Source: a virus
Taxonomy: Duplodnaviria; Caudoviricetes
DNA: 42,464 nt
Direction: 5' to 3' (one strand)
IMG/VR virus record: IMGVR_UViG_3300032257_000034
Coordinates: 1-42,464 of that record
Shown: positions 3,462 to 19,931 of the stretch, in pieces
How the letters are laid out: each line of letters opens with the position of its first letter
How positions within the stretch are numbered: position 1 is the stretch's first letter
Translations under genes and position numbers: made by a program
The notes under the pieces: generated by a model
Told to the model about the DNA's origin: nothing
Databases searched by the model: none
The model's input: the letters and a program-made list of their open reading frames with translations, nothing else

Positions 3462-4868
3462 TTATTTTTTTGCTGAAATTGAAGTTGCACTTTCACTCTT
3501 ACGCGCATTACTCGGTGTTACTTTCACCGTTGGCCCCGCGCTAGTTTCTTCTGGCAGTTCTTCCGCGTTTGGGTCGGGATACGGATCGTTGCCATTAACT
3601 TCTACTTTTAAGCGGTCTTTTTCTTTTGCCGGGTCAATGTTGGCGGTTTCAAAAACCGTGCCTTTGGATGCGCCCAACGCTTGTAATTTAAGCGCTCTAT
3701 CGGCCGCTTGATTTAATGTTTCTGTTTTACGCTCGGCGAAACAAACTTGAAAATCGTAGTTGTCTGGATTAATGCCGGCCAGTAATAGATCCAGGCGAAA
3801 ACCCAACTCGTAAACGTAGGCGACCTGGTCTTGAACGCTGTCGACCTCTTCGTAATATTCACGCTTAAGGTCCTCTAAAATGTCTCGACTTAAATCTTTG
3901 TTGTAACCGGCCAAGCCTTTTGGTAGTGGTGAGCCTGCAAAAAAAGTGTCGAGTAAATAAACCACGTCGTCTATTTGGCTTAAGTTTTCGTCTCCTTGTA
4001 AGGGTAAAACGCTACCTTCACCTTTTACAAAATAGTCCGTTGTTTGGTCCCATTTATCGGCGTCGATAGTATCTTTATATGTACCGAAAAATTCATCAGA
4101 TACATTTTTTAATTGATGCACTTTACGTTGAGCTGCTCGGGTCTTTCTACGGATAACCATATCTTCTTCAGTCATGTCTAGCTTTGACCAAACCTTACGC
4201 GCCGAGTCTAAATAAGGCCGACCCATTGAACCAAAGTCGTCGAAGTTAGGTGGATTTAATCGGCCAAGCGACATATTCCACAAAGGGAATTGTGCAACAA
4301 CTTTATTTGTTGCATGGTCGTATTGTTTATAACCCACGGCGGGGTCAACAAAAATACCGGCGGCGTTTACATTGGCAATGATTGTTTCGGATGGCATACG
4401 AATACCGGCGGCAACGGTTTTGTCTTGTAATAAAACCCATTGCATTGGCAGGTTGCCTTCCATTATTAAACCACGCGCATCACTTTCTAATTTTTCTCGG
4501 CGATTAAGATTTAAACGACGAACATAATTTTTAAATCGGGTTTGTATTTTTGGGCTCATTTCATTTTTAAGTAACAAGCCACTTTTAACAGCGTCTCGGG
4601 CTGTTTTGGTGTGAATTTTTTTAACCCGGGTATCGACTCGGTCCATCATGCGGATATCCATGATGATAGAACGCAATTCAAAGTCGACTGAGAACCGTTG
4701 TTGCGTATATTTAATGGCTGCTTCAGGTGTGGCTCTCGATCCGCGCTCGGTCGTTATTTCTGCAAGTGTGCCTTGAGAATAAAGTGCCTGGGCTAATGCT
4801 TTGGGTGGAATTTGCCCTAAGCCAGTAGTGTTAAATTTTGCTTGTATTTCTGCGAGTGATTTTTTCAT
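3462..4868 (-). CDS. Portal protein
   Basis: 468 aa directly after terL, with G-R-P-Y-L...A.K.W..L...E portal-type segment. Confidence 0.8.
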   Translation of the reverse strand: MKKSLAEIQAKFNTTGLGQIPPKALAQALYSQGTLAEITTERGSRATPEAAIKYTQQRFSVDFELRSIIMDIRMMDRVDTRVKKIHTKTARDAVKSGLLLKNEMSPKIQTRFKNYVRRLNLNRREKLESDARGLIMEGNLPMQWVLLQDKTVAAGIRMPSETIIANVNAAGIFVDPAVGYKQYDHATNKVVAQFPLWNMSLGRLNPPNFDDFGSMGRPYLDSARKVWSKLDMTEEDMVIRRKTRAAQRKVHQLKNVSDEFFGTYKDTIDADKWDQTTDYFVKGEGSVLPLQGDENLSQIDDVVYLLDTFFAGSPLPKGLAGYNKDLSRDILEDLKREYYEEVDSVQDQVAYVYELGFRLDLLLAGINPDNYDFQVCFAERKTETLNQAADRALKLQALGASKGTVFETANIDPAKEKDRLKVEVNGNDPYPDPNAEELPEETSAGPTVKVTPSNARKSESATSISAKK

Positions 4869-6628
4869 TGCATTGCCCTAGCGTGCGTATGATAAAAATA
4901 AAACAACCATGATAAAACTCGTGAGCGCATGTATGGGTCGCTCGGCAGTCTATTTCGAGGTTGTCCTAAGAGTTCGGTTCTATCTCGTTGCCGTGTACTT
5001 ATTACCGTTTCAATACCGGCTGAACCGCGGGTAACAAGGGCCCATAGTGCGGCCATGTAAGAGTCAAATAAATCGTCGCCCAGTTTGGGGTTAACCATTT
5101 TATAAATTGAGTAACTGGTTTTGCTGACTACGGGCGTGATGTTGATTAGTTGCTTATAAAGCAAACGTAAGTCGGCAGTTTCTGGATTGTTTTCGTCCAT
5201 GTCATCGATGTACGGTACCGCGGCATGCCCGGTGTGAAAATTATTACGCACGGCCTGTGCCATTTGGTGTTTGATCATGCCTTCAAAGCGAATAGGAGCA
5301 AAAGCCCATTCAGACCAGGTACTGGCCGTGCTTTCACCATCACCTATCGCGCGGCGGTCGATATTGGTTAATCCTTCTCTAAATAATTCTTCGTTTAGTT
5401 CGGTTAATAATCCAATACCGAATGCATCACCCATAGCTACGTCAGGCATAAAGTAACGCCAAAAACCAACTAGATCTTTTCTTACTATTTTTTCATCGGT
5501 ACCCGGTGCCCACGTATAGCAAAAAATTGGAACGGTATACGAGCCAATTTGCTCCAATATCACAAGTGCGTATTTTGAGCTCTCGGGAGTTTCACCATGC
5601 CCGGAGTGATCATAACCAAAGCTAATTAAGCCGCGTTTTTTATATTTCTCACCAGGTAAAGGTTGCACCACTTCCAAGTTGGCTTGAAGCCCGACCATCA
5701 TTGCCTGGCGTAGATATTTTTCCCATACCAAGTTACGGCCAGAGGTATTGATGCATAGTAATTGACGGGTGAATTCATCAACACTTAAATTGTCACGCAT
5801 ATTTAAAATAAAATTCTTGTTAAGCAAGCCCATTTGCATGCCGTTAATCGCATGCATTATAGGGATAGGGTATTTATAGCTTTCAAGTTCGATGCTGTCT
5901 TTATCGAGATAACCGATAGCAATGAGTTGTTTAGCTTCCTTAATGGCTCGCTCACCGTGGAATGCACCAATAATGTTATACGCACCCGAGTCGATTAATC
6001 CGGTTAAGGTATCAGCACCTTTATAAACACCTGTTATTCTAATTTGAGGGTCGTTTTTACTGTCTTTATTTGCGCCTAAGCGGTCGGTTCCACCTAACAT
6101 TAACAAAAAGTTGGCATAAAGCCGTTCTTTTGGCATGTCGTCGACTTCTTCCAAAGAGGCCATGGTTAAATCGCCACCATCCACTTGAGCCATTATGCCT
6201 TCGGCAAACGCTTTGCTTCTATTCGCAAATTGGTATTTTGTATCGGATTTTTGTTTGCGACCGTTGGTGAATTTTATATAACTGCTTAACACTGGTGAGC
6301 GGTCGATGGCTTCAAGTTGGTAATTTAAGTTGGTCATTGCCTGGGCTTGACGCGGGGCAACAATGCCCAATTCCTGATCGGCATTGCAGGCTAAATATTC
6401 GAGGTTGTAGAGTTCTTTAGCGGAGGTTTTGCGGGTACGTCGGGATGAGAAATCAATCGTATTATTAAACTGATCCATCTCTTTCATTTTTAAAACTTGA
6501 ACCGGATCCAACTCAACATTATGAATATGCTTATGCCACATGGCGTGGTCTCCGGCATAACGCATAATTTCCTGCTCGGCTAAATTAACAAGCTTAAGTC
6601 GTTGAGTTGCTGAGGTACGTTCAGCCAT
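4865..6628 (-). CDS. terL: Terminase large subunit
   Basis: Walker A-like SRRTRKT, Walker B LEEVD, and nuclease acidic residues (GYD, GDAFG, GDDLFD). Synteny fits. Confidence 0.85.
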   Translation of the reverse strand: MAERTSATQRLKLVNLAEQEIMRYAGDHAMWHKHIHNVELDPVQVLKMKEMDQFNNTIDFSSRRTRKTSAKELYNLEYLACNADQELGIVAPRQAQAMTNLNYQLEAIDRSPVLSSYIKFTNGRKQKSDTKYQFANRSKAFAEGIMAQVDGGDLTMASLEEVDDMPKERLYANFLLMLGGTDRLGANKDSKNDPQIRITGVYKGADTLTGLIDSGAYNIIGAFHGERAIKEAKQLIAIGYLDKDSIELESYKYPIPIMHAINGMQMGLLNKNFILNMRDNLSVDEFTRQLLCINTSGRNLVWEKYLRQAMMVGLQANLEVVQPLPGEKYKKRGLISFGYDHSGHGETPESSKYALVILEQIGSYTVPIFCYTWAPGTDEKIVRKDLVGFWRYFMPDVAMGDAFGIGLLTELNEELFREGLTNIDRRAIGDGESTASTWSEWAFAPIRFEGMIKHQMAQAVRNNFHTGHAAVPYIDDMDENNPETADLRLLYKQLINITPVVSKTSYSIYKMVNPKLGDDLFDSYMAALWALVTRGSAGIETVISTRQRDRTELLGQPRNRLPSDPYMRSRVLSWLFYFYHTHARAMQ

Positions 6629-7569
6629 TAATCTTTCGGCTCTACTTTGTATTCTGGATTAATTTCCTTAACCGGATGCGCTATATGGCTACCCTGAATT
6701 AAATTAAGTAGCTTATTTGAATTGTCCTCGAGTCTTTGCTGAAAACTGCCCTCGGTTTCTTGAGCTTTTTCATTCTGGCTAATAAAACCTTTCATAATGT
6801 CGTTTTCGTCTTGAACCTTCGGCGTCATGCCTAAATCGTTTAATGACATGGATAATTTATTGACGTATTCAATGAGCGGCTTCATTAAAGGGTGAGCCTG
6901 GTGATCATAAAGCTGGTGTTTAATATTATTTTCATCGGTCCATTTTGCCAAATGAAACTTCCCGTCCTTATCGTAATACCAGGTCGGGCTTTTCAGTTGC
7001 GGCCCACCGTCTGCGGCAATCGTCATAATCATCCAATCAATCATGGTATGCATCGCCGCATGGGTTTCCGCAAACATATCCATGAGTTTTTCTGGGTCTT
7101 TATGTTCAAAAGCAACTTGAAAACGGAGCATCACCTCGGCTCGTTTAAGGCAAGCTTTGTGCTCAACGCATACTTTGTCTTTGAGGTATTCACAATCATC
7201 ACATTGGGGATATCGACCGGGTTTAGCGGGGAAAAATTTAGACGTTTTGGCAAATAAGCCGTGTTTCATGGCATTTAAGCGTGTTATCTGGGCTTCCTGA
7301 GGCGTTGGGTGCCCTTCTAAGTTCTTAGCAGACTTGGCTCGACCCTCAGCCGTGCGCGGTCCAGTGGCCATAGTGTTGGCCTTAAAGATGTTTTTTTCCC
7401 ATTGGACCTGAGGCGATTCCGCGCCACATTCCGGACAAACGGCAAAATATTCGAATGGATGCCAAGGACGGTCTTCTACATCCTCAACTCGATTCGGCTC
7501 GCTTTTGAATTTATCACCACAGTTGCTGCAGTGAAAATTGATATGTGTATTGGGAGTCTTATTATCCAT
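6628..7569 (-). CDS. terS: Terminase small subunit-like protein with Zn-finger motifs
   Basis: Coupled to terL. TGPRTAEGRAKS...NAMKHG motif and several CxxC pairs. Confidence 0.65.
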   Translation of the reverse strand: MDNKTPNTHINFHCSNCGDKFKSEPNRVEDVEDRPWHPFEYFAVCPECGAESPQVQWEKNIFKANTMATGPRTAEGRAKSAKNLEGHPTPQEAQITRLNAMKHGLFAKTSKFFPAKPGRYPQCDDCEYLKDKVCVEHKACLKRAEVMLRFQVAFEHKDPEKLMDMFAETHAAMHTMIDWMIMTIAADGGPQLKSPTWYYDKDGKFHLAKWTDENNIKHQLYDHQAHPLMKPLIEYVNKLSMSLNDLGMTPKVQDENDIMKGFISQNEKAQETEGSFQQRLEDNSNKLLNLIQGSHIAHPVKEINPEYKVEPKD

Positions 7570-7576
7570 CCCCTAT

Positions 7577-7610
7577 ATAGTGGTGAAAATATAACGGCAG
7601 GATAAGGGCC
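7577..7610 (-). promoter_or_regulatory. Candidate late promoter for terS (GGCCCT-N22-CACTAT)
   Basis: Motif shared with two other intergenic regions upstream of late genes. Confidence 0.5.
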
Positions 7611-7630
7611 AATCAGGTCAGAGCGCCAAT

Positions 7631-9247
7631 TTAAGCCGCTTTGCAGAGCTTTTGCGGTAAACTAACATTAAGCTTAATGGTTCCCAGTAAGGCATGCTCG
7701 GGGAGCCACCTTTCCTCGCTATGAACCGGTCCACCGGACACTACAGCGATCAAGTGCTCTGGTTTATAGTGGATTTTCACATTATTAGCATTGATAGTAA
7801 TATTATCTATAAAGCTGGATAAAAAGCCTCTGACTTCTTTAATCCGAGCTGTATCCAACAGAAAGCCCCTGCATACATCCAATAAATCTTCTAGGTCACC
7901 GTTAATAATTGGTATTTGTGGAGGAAGCTCATTTATAGCATTGCTAATCTGCCGTTCCAATTCCTTTATGTTGGTATTGTGTTCCAGCAACCTCGGTTTT
8001 ACATCGGCTAAATTTAACTCTTGAGGATCCGAAGTCTCTAACAGTTGATATATCTTTTTCCTTTTTGTTTCAACAGCCAATAACTTGTTTTTTATAATGC
8101 TAATTTTCTTACGCTGTTCAGTCTGCCACGATCCCGATATTTTAGTTAATTCTTTGGCTATATTCAGTAAAAGTTTTTTATTGAATATATTTTTAATTAT
8201 TTGCTCAAGTAAAAAAGCATTTAATGGGTCAGTTGAAATTCTATGGCCATCACAAGTATTGTCTTTTTGTTTATTCCTACAATTATAATATCTATAACGT
8301 TTAGATCTTCCTTTGGCTGTTTCTGTTTGTAGACTTGCCGAGCATGCTCCGCATTTTAAAATGCCAGTAAATAATTGTGTGCTACACGGAGAACTTGAAT
8401 CAATTTGTGGAACAGCGGCATCCATTAAAACTTGAACACTATTCCATAGATCTTTATTTATAATAGGCTCATGACTTTCAACAATAATCCAGTCCTCTCT
8501 TTTTCTTGTTCGTTTATTTTTTCGATCATTCCGGTTAAAAACCGTGTTACCTATAACCGCTTCATTTCTAAGTAAAGCCGAAACTGTTGCCTTACTCCAG
8601 CGCCGTCCGCGGTTAGATACCCCTTCGTTATTTAATGCGTCCGCGATTAATTTTGCTCCCAACCCCTGGACTCTTAACTCAAATATTTTTTTTACTATCG
8701 GCGCTTCCTGCATATCCTTTTGTAATCTTTTTCTATTACAGTCTTCAATACATTCAACAGCTTTAAAACCAAAAGCAGTTCGACCTCCATTAAAATAACC
8801 CTGAGTAGCGTTCTTTATCATGCTGCGTTTAGTATCTGCAGACGTTTTTCTACTTTTTAATTCATCCGTTAGTTGATACACAGTTTCAAGAATAAAACCG
8901 CCATCCGTTTCTGGGTCAATGTCAACCGTCAAATATTCAATTTTTGTTCCAGCACTTCGCAATCGATATCGACTCATCGGTCCATTAACATGGTCTCGAC
9001 TAAACCGAGCAGTATCCCATGTAATAAAAAAATCTATTTCGTTTACTTCACAATATGTTATTGCGTCTTCAAATTCAGGTCGATGGCCATACCAAGCTGA
9101 CTTACCTTCTTCGATAAAAACTTTCGCAACGTTTAATTCAAGTTTATCAGCATGAGCCTCGCAAGCTTCAACTTGACCAGGTATAGACAAGTTTTTTTCA
9201 ACTTGTTTTTTATCGCTCACTCGAACATAAATAATGGCTGTTTTCAT
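7631..9247 (-). CDS. Large serine recombinase (integrase)
   Basis: YVRVS catalytic motif, RPEF and DTARFSR motifs, recombinase domain, CGAC...YYNC...C Zn ribbon and coiled coil. Confidence 0.95.
   Translation of the reverse strand: MKTAIIYVRVSDKKQVEKNLSIPGQVEACEAHADKLELNVAKVFIEEGKSAWYGHRPEFEDAITYCEVNEIDFFITWDTARFSRDHVNGPMSRYRLRSAGTKIEYLTVDIDPETDGGFILETVYQLTDELKSRKTSADTKRSMIKNATQGYFNGGRTAFGFKAVECIEDCNRKRLQKDMQEAPIVKKIFELRVQGLGAKLIADALNNEGVSNRGRRWSKATVSALLRNEAVIGNTVFNRNDRKNKRTRKREDWIIVESHEPIINKDLWNSVQVLMDAAVPQIDSSSPCSTQLFTGILKCGACSASLQTETAKGRSKRYRYYNCRNKQKDNTCDGHRISTDPLNAFLLEQIIKNIFNKKLLLNIAKELTKISGSWQTEQRKKISIIKNKLLAVETKRKKIYQLLETSDPQELNLADVKPRLLEHNTNIKELERQISNAINELPPQIPIINGDLEDLLDVCRGFLLDTARIKEVRGFLSSFIDNITINANNVKIHYKPEHLIAVVSGGPVHSEERWLPEHALLGTIKLNVSLPQKLCKAA
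7679..7727. other. Candidate attP inside the LSR 3' end
   Basis: 49-bp imperfect inverted repeat (GGTTC...GAACC; 14 of 24 arm positions match) centred on TCGGGGAGCCA (7698-7708), which resembles a tRNA-Asn 3' end. Confidence 0.55.
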
Positions 9248-9747
9248 TACTTAATAGTACCTTTTAATAACAGCCGATTAATGTGGCGAATGGTTAAATC
9301 TTCACATAGATCTTTTTTTAGAATATTTTTTATTTCTTCAGGTGAATGTCCAATTTCGCTTAAATGAAGAATATATTTATTGCGCTGAAATTTTAGAAAC
9401 TGCGCAAAAATCGGAATGCGTATACGCGCATTGTCATGATGGCCTTTGTTTATATTCTTCTTATCGAGTATCTGCCAAATACGAATAAATTGGTCGTACC
9501 CTATATCCTCTGCCACTTCAATCCATGTATCACTTAAGCCATGCGCTTTTAACTCATCAATACGGCTATCGTTCAGCATTTTTTCGTAAATCGCTTTTTC
9601 GGATTTTTTGCAGATATCTAGGTACCCACCCCCCCTATTGGGGGTGCATCTATGTTCTTGCCGACCCCCCACCCCTGCAGAGTCAAGACCAGGGCGAGTA
9701 TCTTTATCATTCATTCCAGTAATTGAATTGCGTGATTGTGTTGACAT
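9247..9747 (-). CDS. Mor/C-like transcription activator (start uncertain)
   Basis: W.EVAE.IG...F..IW dimerisation-like segment followed by QRN..I...C-terminal HTH, as in the Mu Mor/C family. Confidence 0.6.
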   Translation of the reverse strand: MSTQSRNSITGMNDKDTRPGLDSAGVGGRQEHRCTPNRGGGYLDICKKSEKAIYEKMLNDSRIDELKAHGLSDTWIEVAEDIGYDQFIRIWQILDKKNINKGHHDNARIRIPIFAQFLKFQRNKYILHLSEIGHSPEEIKNILKKDLCEDLTIRHINRLLLKGTIK

Positions 9748-9789
9748 GATAGTTATAACCTCTTGATTTAATTACATCGGTACTACTGC

Positions 9790-9820
9790 GAACTGCGTGT
9801 TAGTACATAAGGCGCAATTC
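9790..9820. other. dif/loxP-like tyrosine recombinase core site
   Basis: GAACTGCGTGTT-AGTACAT-AAGGCGCAATTC: imperfect inverted arms around a short spacer, about 180 bp downstream of the XerC-like gene. Confidence 0.45.
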
Positions 9821-10003
9821 AAAGAGATCCACGGAGCTGGTGAGTTAGGCCGTTCTAAAGGAAAGTTCTGGAGGCATGTATCGTTGTCTAGCAGAGCCCG
9901 TCCTATATAGAGAGTGTTAGGGGAGTAGGTTGGCAGTATCCAAGTTCTACGCAGTTGTTGAGCCCGTAAAGGCAACCTGAATGCCTTTATTATATATTTC
10001 GGG

Positions 10004-11014
10004 TTACTTTCCATGACGCAGTAACTCTTTAGTAATGGCTGTCATCGGTGTGTTGATTTGGTTGAGAGGGTTAGCCTTATCAACTGACTGAGCTAATTTG
10101 CGCGCCGCTAAGTGGGTGTATATCTGAGTAGATGCAGGGTTTGCGTGGCCCATTAGTGCTTGGCGAACAGACTCTTGCACATCGTTCTCGGCCAACTCAG
10201 TACCAAACAAATGTCGCAATGAGTGTGGATGCTGTTGATTACGAGGAAGGCCTGCAGCGGCGGCGTGCTTAACGATCATCTTTTGGATGCCACTATCTGA
10301 CATTCTTCTTCTCTCGCCGTGATACTCATGTGGCTTTACATTTTTATTGCCCAATGAAATAAATAAAACCTTATCGCCAGTCGGTAAGGTTCTATCGATT
10401 TTAGTTATGTCCGGGTGAGCTAAGTATGCACGTATTAAATGCCTGGCTTCATGTGGTACCGGTATTAACCTCTCCTTTTCTCCTTTCTCTAGTACTTTTA
10501 ATATCAACCACTCCTGACCTTCTATTGAAGTAAAAACGAGGTTTGATTCATTTAATCCTGTTAGGCCACCAAGCCGAATGCCGGTGCCAATAAATAAAGT
10601 AATGATTGCTGTATCGCGTAAACCTGCAAACGTTTCCAGGCTAGGTTGCATTACCAGGCGTTCAGCATTCTTAATGCTCATAGCCACTGGTAACCGTCGA
10701 CCAATTTGTGGATAAGGCAATGTGGTCGCTGGGTTACTTTGTATTTTTTTATTCTTCAATAAGTATTTATAAAAGCCGCGAATAGCAGCAACGAGTGGGC
10801 GGCGAGAACGTGGTGTTAAGCCTTGCTCATGTGCAAATGTGCCAGTGAATTTTTCAAGGTTTTTTATATCCAGCTCTAAAAATTTTAGATCTTCTTTTTT
10901 TGACCAGGCAAGCAAACGGTCAAGGAAGCTCTTATATTTTTTTATCGTTAACTTACTTCGGCCTTTGTTGTATTGCAGCTGCCGTAAAAAATCATTAATT
11001 AAATCGTTGTTCAC
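10004..11014 (-). CDS. XerC/D-like tyrosine recombinase
   Basis: N-terminal core-binding domain; GIR, KG.KER, HSLRH, MGH and TQIYTH catalytic residues intact. Confidence 0.93.
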   Translation of the reverse strand: MNNDLINDFLRQLQYNKGRSKLTIKKYKSFLDRLLAWSKKEDLKFLELDIKNLEKFTGTFAHEQGLTPRSRRPLVAAIRGFYKYLLKNKKIQSNPATTLPYPQIGRRLPVAMSIKNAERLVMQPSLETFAGLRDTAIITLFIGTGIRLGGLTGLNESNLVFTSIEGQEWLILKVLEKGEKERLIPVPHEARHLIRAYLAHPDITKIDRTLPTGDKVLFISLGNKNVKPHEYHGERRRMSDSGIQKMIVKHAAAAGLPRNQQHPHSLRHLFGTELAENDVQESVRQALMGHANPASTQIYTHLAARKLAQSVDKANPLNQINTPMTAITKELLRHGK

Positions 11015-11087
11015 TACTTACTCCTAGAAAATACATGTGGGAAAACCACTTTTATCTACACAAAAAATGATGTACATAGTCTAAACA

Positions 11088-11377
11088 CTTGCCCCCGCAG
11101 CCCTTAAATCACGTTACTTATTGATTTCTATAGGAAAAACAAGGGGGCAAGTTGTTTTGTCACTAGCCCCCTAATTTCATTAGTTTGCTAAAAGACCTTG
11201 ATATATCAATAACTTATTAAGGGGCAAGTACTTTTACAATAACGCTCACTTGCCCCCTGCTTGCCCCCGCAGCCCCCTGCTTGCCCCCTCACTTGCCCCC
11301 TACTAGATACATAAATAAATATATATAATTCAATAAGTTAAATAATAAATAATGCTTTAGGGGGCTGCGGGGGCAAG
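11088..11377. repeat. Iteron-like CTTGCCCCC array with IHF-like sites, putative replication origin
   Basis: Eight CTTGCCCC(C) copies in both orientations plus about four variants, separated by AT-rich spacers. TATCAA-TAAC-TTA at 11204-11216. Lies immediately downstream of the primase-helicase. Confidence 0.75.
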
Positions 11378-11451
11378 CATTCTAATAAATGTACACCTAG
11401 TTTTTCCCTGTTCTTGATAAAAAAATTAGGTATGTTGCGTAAGTCATTGTT

Positions 11452-14400
11452 CTATATAGCGGCGCGAGTTTCTTGCGCCTTCGGCGCGGGTTCTGGGGTA
11501 TCAGCCCATGCGTATCTGAAATAACGCGTGCCGTTTACTTTCTTGGTGTAAATAATCGACCAACCTGCCTCTTCTAGAGTTGAGAGTTCATTATTGATAC
11601 GCACGCCAAGCTGGCGTGCGTTCTTAAATATAATTTTTAAACCATACTCTCGGGCATAGCGTTGCATCATGGCGAGTAGATCAGCGGTTGATGCTTCAAA
11701 TGAATATATACGCGGGCGTGTCGACAATCCAAATTCATCCTCGCCGTTATCTCTATCAATATAAATGCCCATCATTGGGCACCAAACTTTATTGTCTCTC
11801 TGCTCAGCACTGCGTGAGAAGTCGATAAGGAAAGTCCGTTTTAAACCATCAAGTAACTGTAAAACGGCGTTTGTGCCCTGCTCACTCTCTTTAGCGTGTT
11901 CATTCTGGTACTTAACCCACGCATCCAATAAAACATACTCAGGCGCTCTGTCACCGGCATCTGCTTTTAATTCATCTGGCAATGGAATGTATTTCAGTAA
12001 CACCCTCGAGATTAAAGCCAGTATGGCCATAAATTCTGATGTTCGGTCTTTTGAAAAATGCTTATGGTGTTCTCGAATATATTTAATGTAATTTTTATGC
12101 TGCTCAAGTTCCGGAATAACCTTATTGGCGAGTAGCTGTATCCAGGCACTTAATATTTCATTGCGCTTGCCCATTAACTTCATTTCAATTTCAGATTCAA
12201 TAAAGTCTGTACGCTGATAACGTTTTGAAAAGTTAACCAGGTACGTTCTATTGATTAGTTCCGGTTTGGCAAACGGTTCAATCGCTGTAATGCAGACCAG
12301 GCAATTTAATTTTTCAGTGGTTACGCCTGATTCAGTTCCACCTTTACGTTTTATATTTGTGGCTCCGGTTGCTGCAAGCAATAAAAAATTAAGTTGTTGC
12401 TTATTAATATCATCCGTTTCAAGGTTGTCTTTTATAATTAATGGTTCGGTTGACCCCATCGAATAATCACCTGCAGTACTCGACCGACCAACCATACTTT
12501 TTCCATACAATAAGATTGAGCCAAATTTCGCGCAGGTTGTTTTACCACTACCTGATCCACCCTCCATTTTCATTAGCGCTTTACTAGGCGTTAAAGGCAT
12601 AAGATAGGGAGATAGCAACCACGAAAGAATCAAATAACGCTGAGCAAGGTCACAGGTCATTGTGTCAAAAATTAATGCTTTTAAATCACGCATACCTGCG
12701 TCTACATTCACCTCGGGGTCGTAACTGAATTCTTGCATTTGTTCAGACTCCGCTAATAAAACAGCATGCGGATTAGTTCCGTTCTCCATCATTTCCGCTT
12801 CACCTGCAGATAATTTTAATATTCGATTTGCGGGGTCCTTTAAATTTAGAAATACATTGGGGCCAGTGCCGTCGTCGGTCATGTGTACCCAACTAAATGC
12901 ATTGAGCCTATCGCCACGGTTATAACAAAGCGCCTTTAATTCGGCATGCACGTACTTAGATAATTGTTGAGTGGAATTAAGGTCAGCCTCTTTATGTAAT
13001 AAAGATTCCCACGCAGTGTTGCTGCCAATAGTATAAATTTTATGATGATAAAAAAGGTGCAATGTATCGTCCGACACAAAGAACTTGCCGTGGCTTTTAA
13101 AGTAATCCCATATTGCGCGAGACACTACGCGCATAAAAGCTTCAGGTGGTTTTGAGTTACCGTCACCAACATGAAAAGCACCTTCTATTTGTTTTATTTG
13201 CTCACGTAAATCAAAGCCGGTTTTAATGTTTTCGAGTATGGCATCACGAGAAAAACCAAATTTTTGTAATTCAAAAATAATGGTGTCTCGTTGCATGTCG
13301 GGCACTTGGCCAAGCAATTCAAAATAATCAATGTCTTCTAGCCAGTTTAATGTGGCGTTGGCGTCTTCTTTTATCTCGGCCGGTATAACTTTAAGTTCCC
13401 ACAATAATGGGTGCTGAGCTTTTTTGATTATTGATTGCACTCGTTTGTTTGCGGTGGCTTTGTCTTTCTGAAGGAAGTCGTCCGGGTCTTCGCCCGGTTC
13501 CATAAATGCGCTGGCAACTGAAACAGTACAATCCGGCTGTCGAAGTAAATGATTATAAAGTTTTCGAGTGTATTGGACACCTGCAGGGGGTTTACCGTTT
13601 GTGCCGTACTTAGTATCAAAGTCAAACCATAGAACAAAATGTTTACCATTTGAGTGAGTGAGTAACCATTGAATTTGTTTGGTGCTCAAATTGCCCAGTG
13701 TGGCCATAACATTACGAATGCTTACATCTAAAAAACTGGCGTAGTCGTTTTCACCTTCAACAATATTAATTATTGAGTTATTGATGCCGCGTTGATTACC
13801 CCATAACAAGCCGCCTATTCTATTTTCAGTTTTAAGCTGGTAGTCAATTTTTTTACGTGGATCTTTAATAGTGAAATGGCCAATGTCGCCGGTTTCGTTT
13901 CGATGCGGAAAAACAATAAGACCCGGCACAAAGTAATCGCGCCATTCGCCCGTTGGCTCGCCTTTAATTTTCTTTTCAACATACAAACCAGACTGTTTTA
14001 TCTTGTCGAGCGATATCCCTTGTTTCTGTAACGCTTCAGCCATTTTGCCATCGGTAAAGCCAATTTCCATTGTATCGATAGTACTTTGAATATGGCCACG
14101 CCCGTCTGGTTTTGGTGATGTTAAATAAGCCATGCTATCCGGCCTATTGGCTAAAACGCCACGATAATATGCTGTGGCAGCATCTAACACTTCATGCAAT
14201 AAGCTAGTTTTGTTTTTTGCTGCGGCGTCTTGTTGCGCCTTCGGCGCGGGTAGTTCTACATTAAAATGTTTGGCAACATTACGAAGCGCTTCGCCTTTAC
14301 CAAGTTGGTGATAAAGCTCTGCAAAGGTGAAAACATCCCCACCCTCGCCACAAGATTGACATTTAAAAGTGTCTTCGTTTTCACCAAAAACATTAAAGCA

Positions 14401-19052: not shown

Positions 19053-19299
19053 AAAACATTAATGTATTTCTATACATTAATAACGTTTCAAGAAAACGTA
19101 ATTCGGCCGACGCTTCATCAAAAGAAAATGATCGAGCAAAGTTACCCATTGCATCTAGCGCACCTTGATGTTTTGTGTCTATCATTTGTGCCAGGCCAAG
19201 ATTTCGCCAGTCCTGCTTATTTGAACACTCCCAAATAAGCTCAATCGCAACTAAGCAACCGGCTGGCAACTCTTCTATTGCTGCTTTTATACTACTCAT
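19000..19299 (-). CDS. Hypothetical protein
   Basis: ATGA overlap with the tyrosine recombinase stop. Confidence 0.65.
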   Translation of the reverse strand: MSSIKAAIEELPAGCLVAIELIWECSNKQDWRNLGLAQMIDTKHQGALDAMGNFARSFSFDEASAELRFLETLLMYRNTLMFYESLNLSAAHVAAMQSK

Positions 19300-19931
19300 G
19301 CTGCTACCTCTTCGGCTGTTACCGCTATTTCTTCTTTGTCTGGCAGGGTGTAAATAAGTGTGCTGCGCGGGTCGGTATGGTCCAGGAGTACTTGCGCTAC
19401 CTTTTGCGGGTCGGCCGCTGTTGAATTTTTTATAATGCGCTTGGCAAAGGTGTGCCTAAACCAGTGCGGTGAGGCGTTGGCATTAATACCTGAGGCTTCT
19501 CGCCAGTGTTGTACTCGGTCTTGAACAGTACGAATAGCGATACGATTTCCCTTGCGAGACATCAAGAGTGGTGAATCGTCGTTTAATGGGTAGCCTAGTA
19601 GGCGGCGAACTTTTAATAATTCACGTACTGCTTTACGTGCTTTTTCATTACAGTAAATTTTAGTATCGTGCTTTTTACCTTTAAGCACTTCTTTTTTAAG
19701 ATTGAATTTTTTGTCTTTTACAGCTGTTTTTGCATCGAGAACATTTAGTGCCACGAGTGTTCCTACTCGCAAACCGGTATTGCGCATAATTTTAAAGGCA
19801 TAAAAATCACGGGTTGCTAATAATCCCGGTACATTTTCTTTATTCATTGTTGCTTTTATGGCGCTAAAAAACTGGCGCTCTTCTTGCTCAGTTAAATAAC
19901 GGTCGAAATCTTTTCTATTTTGTGCGTACAT
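19296..19931 (-). CDS. Short tyrosine recombinase (catalytic domain only, FimB/FimE-sized)
   Basis: TGLRV, LKG, PHWFRH, LLDH and TLIYT motifs; 211 aa with no N-terminal binding domain. Confidence 0.9.
   Translation of the reverse strand: MYAQNRKDFDRYLTEQEERQFFSAIKATMNKENVPGLLATRDFYAFKIMRNTGLRVGTLVALNVLDAKTAVKDKKFNLKKEVLKGKKHDTKIYCNEKARKAVRELLKVRRLLGYPLNDDSPLLMSRKGNRIAIRTVQDRVQHWREASGINANASPHWFRHTFAKRIIKNSTAADPQKVAQVLLDHTDPRSTLIYTLPDKEEIAVTAEEVAA

Follow-up and report, generated by a model that had tools for sequence, protein, structure and literature searches.

Exchange of a serine integrase C-terminus upon phage insertion at tRNA-Asn: an attP site in the last integrase codons and a likely regulatory tail

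The window analysed here, a whole virus record of 42.5 kb (completeness 99% according to CheckV), contains a gene for a large serine integrase whose last codons resemble the 3' end of a tRNA-Asn. This raises the question of whether the phage attachment site lies inside the integrase gene and what insertion would then do to the enzyme. The direction of recombination by serine integrases is generally held to depend on a separate directionality factor (RDF), and many integrases have no known RDF. With moderate confidence we favour the following answer: attP lies in the last codons of the integrase gene, insertion in relatives has taken place at the CCA end of tRNA-Asn and exchanged the integrase tail, and the lost tail is likely regulatory, marking the enzyme of the free phage as a short-lived integration form.

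Integrase gene and its surroundings

The Resolvase (residues 4-150), Recombinase (180-276) and zinc-ribbon (292-350) domains of the integrase all score above the Pfam cut-offs and are accompanied by a coiled coil. Residues S11, R81 and R84, the catalytic serine and the active-site arginines, are invariant in alignments A1-A3. Structure comparison yielded a match to 9dxh (Z 20, rmsd 21.5 over 475 residues); solved integrases align with residues 1 to about 505 only, and the C-terminus reads ...ERWLPEHALLGTIKLNVSLPQKLCKAA. The NCBIfam score for SCCmec CcrB was 133 bits, below the curated cut-off of 900. Coordinates of all features of the locus are compiled in Table 1.

Table 1. Features of the integrase locus in the window
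Feature	Position	Strand	Remarks
Large serine integrase (LSR), free-phage (attP) form, 538 aa	7631-9247	-	Resolvase, Recombinase, zinc ribbon, coiled coil
Swappable tail, E517-A538	7634-7699	-	ends K-A-A; predicted strand 524-529 and helix 532-535
attP	7679-7727		inside integrase codons 508-523; 49-bp imperfect inverted repeat
P arm outer motif GGTTCCCAG	7679-7687	+	likely zinc-ribbon-domain site
7-nt core GGAGCCA	7702-7708	+	tRNA-Asn positions 70-76; shortest sequence common to both prophage ends
P' arm outer motif GGTTCATAG	7719-7727	-	family consensus GGTTCNNAG; likely zinc-ribbon-domain site
Likely terminase small subunit (terS-like)	6628-7569	-	first gene behind attP; two genes before portal gene
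Likely terL	4865-6628		named from position and weak leads
166-aa gene, possible Mor-like activator	9247-9747	-	stop overlaps integrase start
XerC/D-like tyrosine recombinase	10004-11014	-	conserved neighbour, 129/147 loci

The window encodes tail, portal, primase, CII-like and Arc-like proteins, and the gene order around the integrase is XerC/D-like, possible Mor-like, integrase, likely terS, likely terL and portal. The two terminase names are based on position and weak leads without a family match: neither protein hit a Pfam, PHROGs or NCBIfam family, and for the terS-like gene the Atlas structure rows lie near Terminase_4, below the naming bar. Both likely subunits are widely conserved across the phage group despite matching none of these families. 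The possible Mor-like gene was found at 114/147 loci. Its Atlas lead is PF08765 at 0.85, on 14% of members, and the gene in the same position of MT855965 is annotated as a middle operon regulator. Two tyrosine recombinases are encoded despite the phage integrating via the serine enzyme; the second (19296-19931) consists of the catalytic domain alone and itself ends in Ala-Ala. Among the integrase neighbours, judged by conservation and families alone, no RDF candidate was found. ARAGORN called no tRNA in the window, and scans of 7400-11500 for promoters (15 vs 11.0) and terminators (6 vs 4.0) remained at the level of shuffled sequence. Between the primase and XerC-like genes (11060-11430) there is a cluster of CTTGCCCCC direct and inverted repeats, including a perfect 21-nt inverted repeat (11258-11278/11359-11379); this cluster is likely a replication origin.

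The codons for W514-L515-P516-E517 occupy 7708-7697, and the plus strand at 7698-7708 reads TCGGGGAGCCA; GGGGAGCCA is present once in the window. These codons, the plus-strand string and the surrounding inverted repeat are as a first-pass annotation of the window had described them. In the repeat, 28/49 positions are symmetric. As 0.12% of the 49-bp windows of the contig, corresponding to about 49 places, score as high, the repeat alone is weak evidence, and a repeat search of the window did not list it. It is the family evidence from relatives that raises the attP site above chance.

Free and inserted states among relatives

A total of 223 related loci from genomes, virus records and metagenomes were compared, one of which (L146) is the window itself. 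They comprised 104 attL-type, 82 attP-type, 25 incomplete and nine unassigned loci and three that were cut at the core; 20 of the 186 assigned states were called by a protein anchor after the DNA anchor had failed. At attL-type loci the integrase runs into an antisense tRNA after W-L-P, while attP-type loci keep the phage tail. ARAGORN called an antisense tRNA at the core (80 nt flank) at 69/77 attL-type but 0/81 attP-type loci, namely 63 tRNA-Asn, two tRNA-Arg, two tRNA-His, one tRNA-Leu and one tRNA-Glu. The eight attL-type loci without a call follow a tRNA sequence for about 45 nt and then diverge. At L034, L076, L135, L193-L195 and L204 the integrase reads about 45 nt of tRNA-Asn sequence, which then stops; such pieces are likely displaced tRNA fragments that belong to a different element, one with its insertion point in the anticodon loop.

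Thus, the earlier proposal that attP sits at the end of the integrase gene and mimics a tRNA-Asn 3' end is borne out by the 104 of 223 loci that enter an antisense tRNA after W-L-P. In inserted relatives the tRNA is whole, as predicted for a crossover that rebuilds it, with the phage supplying about positions 72-76. The inserted enzyme has 526 aa and stops on the anticodon: the 22 tail residues, which the annotation had expected to be swapped for antisense-tRNA-encoded ones, are replaced by about 10 such residues that mostly end in Asp. The Asp end, found in 91/103 inserted forms, is a by-product of the Asn anticodon.

The two states also occur with the same integrase gene. Among 12 pairs picked for likeness, three (L173/L176, L166/L164 and L202/L201) combined integrase DNA that was 100% identical over 1500 nt with the two different ends, and a fourth was cut at the core; this agrees with the expected pair of isoforms, one excised and one integrated. 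Close homologues correspondingly show two kinds of C-terminus after W-L-P: a tail like LGTxxLxxxLPxRFxxAA in proteins of 537-546 aa, and GSNQGHKD-like endings in proteins of 525-528 aa. The latter include P0003 and P0004, which are 70% identical to the window integrase and are the nearest inserted forms, an integrated copy of exactly this phage not having been found. Contigs from four DNA sequencing runs contained no attL or attR junction of this phage, a result that speaks neither for nor against insertion. A single-protein search of viral contigs gave one distant match. On a tree of 156 integrase bodies, 40 state changes were counted vs 51 for shuffled labels; by this measure the attL and attP states show some clustering but do not form two clades. 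The core changed 11 times on the integrase tree, and as judged from these sequences retargeting to other tRNAs (His, Glu, Arg, Leu) has happened repeatedly.

Several relatives deserve separate mention. The isolated phage vB_MaeS-yong1 (L298; MT855965, 3992-5614) carries an attP-form family member with a W-R-P core; a cyanobacterium is recorded as its host, and the other named genomes in the set are nearly all proteobacterial. A protein similar to the MT855965 integrase is inserted at tRNA-Glu (L175). The integrase gene together with its att site is inverted or divergent relative to terS in some relatives (L065, L073, L125, L161; L003, L010, L053, L124, L152), and this module therefore moves as a unit. 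Finally, in L201/L202, L211/L213 and L086 the attP and attL junctions of the same phage lie on one contig about 42-44 kb apart. Either two copies are inserted in tandem in such lysogens, an outcome that presupposes attP x attL recombination, or the assembler went twice round an excised circle.

The far prophage ends were inspected as well. When a 1-kb flank was required, a terS-like gene was found within 4 kb downstream of the integrase at 48/68 attP-type and 0/60 attL-type loci. It was searched for in 38 of the 63 genome loci and was present in 31/38, with no match in 7/38. In 16/38 genomes the core recurs at a distance of 41-49 kb from the tRNA end, there followed by a phage tail in frame, and in 14/16 this tail is 77-1696 nt before terS, which is the first gene of the prophage after insertion. 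That both ends are on the same contig is indicated by coordinates and orientation, and the spans in L053 and L039 were worked out from coordinates. The antisense tRNA-Asn after WLP and terS at the opposite prophage end, for which integrated relatives were to be checked, were thus both found. Separation of integrase and terS by insertion holds in that the tail and the terS-like gene are at the far end; adjacency in the free state is not universal, as the 48/68 loci show. The genomes outside the 16 fall into several classes: (i) no clear attR was seen in L013, L022, L037, L038, L041, L042, L047 and L048; (ii) L008 has a 19-nt core with the tail out of frame; (iii) in L027, L049, L050, L057 and L059 attR is present, probably on another contig; (iv) in L011 attL is cut at the contig end. 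Most provirus records are trimmed before attR.

Of 20 pairs, 12 have terminator-like hairpins at the far end on its host side, and five have them on the phage side, now behind the tRNA. Hairpins at the far end would be expected if insertion had pushed the terminator of the tRNA away. In this comparison (far ends L228-L295; 7725-7770 in the window), no more than 5/20 phage arms offer a substitute terminator. Going by the sequences, read-through from the tRNA could run antisense into the integrase gene.

Architecture of the att site

The two prophage ends share as few as 7 nt in 6/16 genomes (L006, L030, L039, L040, L053, L062) and never fewer; this shared core begins at the T of TGG. The 11-nt shared stretch assumed in the first-pass annotation has to be shortened accordingly. 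A length of 7 nt is accounted for by 5 nt that mend the tRNA plus a 2-nt crossover. The annotation had also regarded the central dinucleotide as undefined because the repeat has an odd length. The odd length is real, the two arms differing by 1 bp in either register, while the dinucleotide is narrowed to 7702-7704: from sequence it is likely 7702-7703 and, with distinctly lower probability, 7703-7704. Placing the crossover at 7702-7703 would bring the P and tRNA arms exactly to the LI integrase positions and leave P' 1 bp long; with 7703-7704, P' would be canonical and the inner GG/CC symmetric. In phages of the His and Glu types, core position 6 tracks the target tRNA, and positions 7-8 can stay CC (L294, L315). 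When His- or Glu-type attP sites having C in core position 6 were sought, three stretches were returned, none with an integrase. The opposite scan returned 33 stretches, five with an integrase match and one more with a family-like tail, the rest being chance.

Both attP arms carry the family consensus GGTTCNNAG. Among 154 unique P' arms, the motif was in the same register in 130, 1-3 bp further out in 14 and missing in 10. After insertion the P' motif remains with the body of the integrase gene beside the tRNA; the P motif accompanies the tail to the other end of the prophage, and codons 520-523, which contain it, are constrained at third positions. On the tRNA arm GGTTC of the T-loop, which alone is kept of the 9-mer, lies exactly 5 bp nearer the core than the motif on the P arm. 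The motif registers are 16-24 for P and 11-19 for B, in agreement with the model of LI integrase, in which the zinc-ribbon motif occupies these same positions of attP and attB, respectively (PMC3783163). Judged by sequence, the 5-bp inward shift on the tRNA arm is the signature of a serine integrase. The host arm of attB has no motif (17 genomes; no base conserved >52%, no motif score >1.7), so that attB amounts to the tRNA's own T-arm, acceptor strand and CCA.

According to this att-site model, the integrase would bind GGTTCNNAG on both attP arms and, on the tRNA arm, GGTTC of the T-loop 5 bp closer in, and would cut at tRNA positions 70-71 or, less likely, 71-72. If this is true, a half-site attB would consist of the T-loop, acceptor strand and CCA of a tRNA, and different tRNAs could be targeted by a change of the core.

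Possible functions of the exchanged tail

Tails were reduced to 59 at under 70% identity and compared with 815 other ORFs from the same loci. Ala-Ala ends were found in 30/59 tails vs 28/815 control ORFs and Ala ends in 45/59 vs 110/815; tails share ancestry, and a Fisher test on the Ala-Ala enrichment overstates their independence. Ala-ending tails use all four Ala codons and all three stops, and no tail ends in Asp or Glu. Tail length ranges from 17 to 48 aa, and 10 of the 17 long tails (28 residues or more) are still Ala-terminal. Ala-Ala is lacking in 29/59 tails and terminal Ala in 14/59; the MT855965 protein ends in SQSAS. In the 28 standard-length tails, codons 514-516 show no variation at any position, whereas codons 526, 528, 530 and 531 keep the second base or residue class and vary at the third. 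This pattern argues that the att part is selected as DNA and the remainder as protein.

AlphaFold2 predicted a loose linker (507-516) followed by a strand (pLDDT 87) and a helix (pLDDT 78). The natural inserted form P0003 was predicted to be disordered from residue 501 (pLDDT under 50) with a mean pLDDT of 84. Given that solved integrases reach about residue 505 and the inserted form retains 1-516, the canonical fold is complete in the latter and the tail comes on top of it. The window integrase ends in Ala-Ala, with about three free residues in the predicted structure, which may limit the accessibility of this end. Such a stretch beyond the folded tail is short for protease engagement. On the strength of the model the tail is likely more than a degron: as it is predicted to fold, a pure ClpXP degron would be only part of the likely story.

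The gene arrangement implies that an infecting phage makes the tailed form alone, which must integrate, and that a single lysogen makes the tail-less form alone, which must excise. The two enzyme forms are therefore likely to provide a built-in control of integration vs excision. As a strand and a helix, the tail may fold back and pack against the enzyme, and it would probably dock on the second DNA-binding domain, which is the domain that the tail follows. The RDFs of SPbeta and phiC31 bind this domain at the base of the coiled coil (PMC11722253, 10.1101/2025.05.02.651858). The basic-Ala-Ala end could in addition recruit ClpXP, like the tag on the integrase of mycobacteriophage BPs. In a stronger form, which we put forward only tentatively, the tail, docked on the second DNA-binding domain, would act in cis as a directionality factor and restrict the enzyme to integration, and loss of the tail through integration itself would yield an RDF-free excisionase; together with a half-site attB retargeted via the 7-nt core, this would make a self-switching family that can be aimed at different tRNAs.

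Acidic C-termini resist ClpX, and the Asp-terminal inserted forms (91/103) would fit a tail that acts on stability alone. Here both forms would have the same directionality and use a separate RDF, the tail being a ClpXP substrate signal that gates lysogeny and clears integrase in lytic growth. The Ala-Ala enrichment is anchored at the tail end as in the ssrA degron, which ends in Ala-Ala (PMC10638403), and BPs offers a precedent (PMC3694055). Yet the conserved strand pattern, the Leu-Pro and Arg at 526-533 and the ordered tail prediction would be left unexplained, and terminal Ala is missing in about a quarter of the tails. We hold this account to be unlikely.

Less probable still is that the tail is needed for full activity, as in phage Mx8, so that a weak inserted form stabilises the prophage until induction or until tailed enzyme is supplied in trans. 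The prediction of the tail as a folded part and the Mx8 precedent (cited in PMC4701971) are consistent with this, and the authors of the DsiB study raised the same idea (PMC3146451). Against it, the inserted form retains the entire fold of the solved integrases (mean pLDDT 84), and both junctions of one phage occur in one assembly (L201/L202, L211/L213, L086), which fits excision but also double lysogens.

Constraint on codons 514-523 as DNA and the variable tail length (17-48 aa) could also reflect genome economy, the tail being neutral read-through to the next stop. Outside the att site, however, residue classes are conserved even where third positions vary freely, and Ala-Ala is enriched; this explanation is very improbable and was rejected. 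A 7-nt core is typical of tyrosine recombinases, and the presence of the XerC-like gene at 129/147 loci might suggest that its product integrates via a 7-nt overlap, with the serine integrase gene as a bystander. This is hardly credible and was likewise rejected, since att remains in the serine gene when the latter is inverted against the XerC-like gene (L065, L073, L125, L161) and at 18 loci without a tyrosine recombinase within 5 kb upstream, and the outer motif with its 5-bp offset follows the serine pattern with no inverted repeats hugging the core. A suicidal-integrase model was rejected because the inserted form keeps residues 1-516, past the end of the solved folds.

The preferred reading, a regulatory tail exchanged by integration, has relatives among known systems, of which BPs is not a serine integrase system. 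The design as such, with the core inside the integrase ORF and a C-terminus that differs between states, is already known from Mx8, DsiB and streptococcal rumA ICEs, as far as the available parts of the reports describe them. In the Dehalococcoides ssrA islands (McMurdie 2011, PMC3146451), the 3' end of the serine recombinase gene dsiB overlaps attP/attL at a structural RNA gene, and regulation by the state-dependent C-terminus was suggested by the authors; unlike here, the target is tmRNA, the islands are not phages, a helper DsiA is involved, C-termini are described as divergent, and the parts consulted report no conserved tail, degron or att model. Streptococcal rumA ICEs (Ambroset 2016, PMC4701971) likewise have att inside a serine integrase gene, and their excised form differs in length and C-terminus with a proposed functional difference; they differ in being conjugative elements with a protein-coding target, and the available text describes no tail motif. 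In Myxococcus phage Mx8 (cited in PMC4701971), attP lies inside int and the inserted form is less active, but the enzyme is a tyrosine integrase and the swap far larger (112 residues to 13). Integration of BPs removes a C-terminal degradation tag, and its integrase, which carries a proteolysis tag, needs no RDF (PMC3694055); there, attP lies in the repressor gene and the integrase tag is permanent, in contrast to attP in the integrase gene of the window. The integrases of LI/A118, SPbeta, phiC31 and Bxb1 share domain order and fold, an attP of about 50 bp and the 5-bp attB motif shift (PMC3783163, PMC11722253, 10.1101/2025.05.02.651858), whereas att in the gene, one attB arm without motif, one attP arm 1 bp long and the extra tail after the fold set the present family apart. 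The archaeal suicidal integrases SSV1, pTN3 and pT26-2 have att within the integrase gene but are tyrosine enzymes split into two inactive pieces (PMC8371274); here the whole canonical fold survives. The available parts of the VarioGold, Paracoccus and Integrase-On-Demand papers do not describe the design, and the accessible literature, from which most subscription papers were excluded, gave no description of a proteobacterial tRNA-Asn phage family, a conserved folded Ala-Ala tail or a T-loop outer motif.

A family in which recombination edits the C-terminus of the enzyme itself allows control in cis to be tested directly on two isoforms that occur naturally. Mining of prophages yields the integrases of this family in their tail-less form, and assays of these cover only one of two enzymes. 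A half-site attB in a near-universal tRNA end would make the family a candidate broad-host integration tool for proteobacteria.
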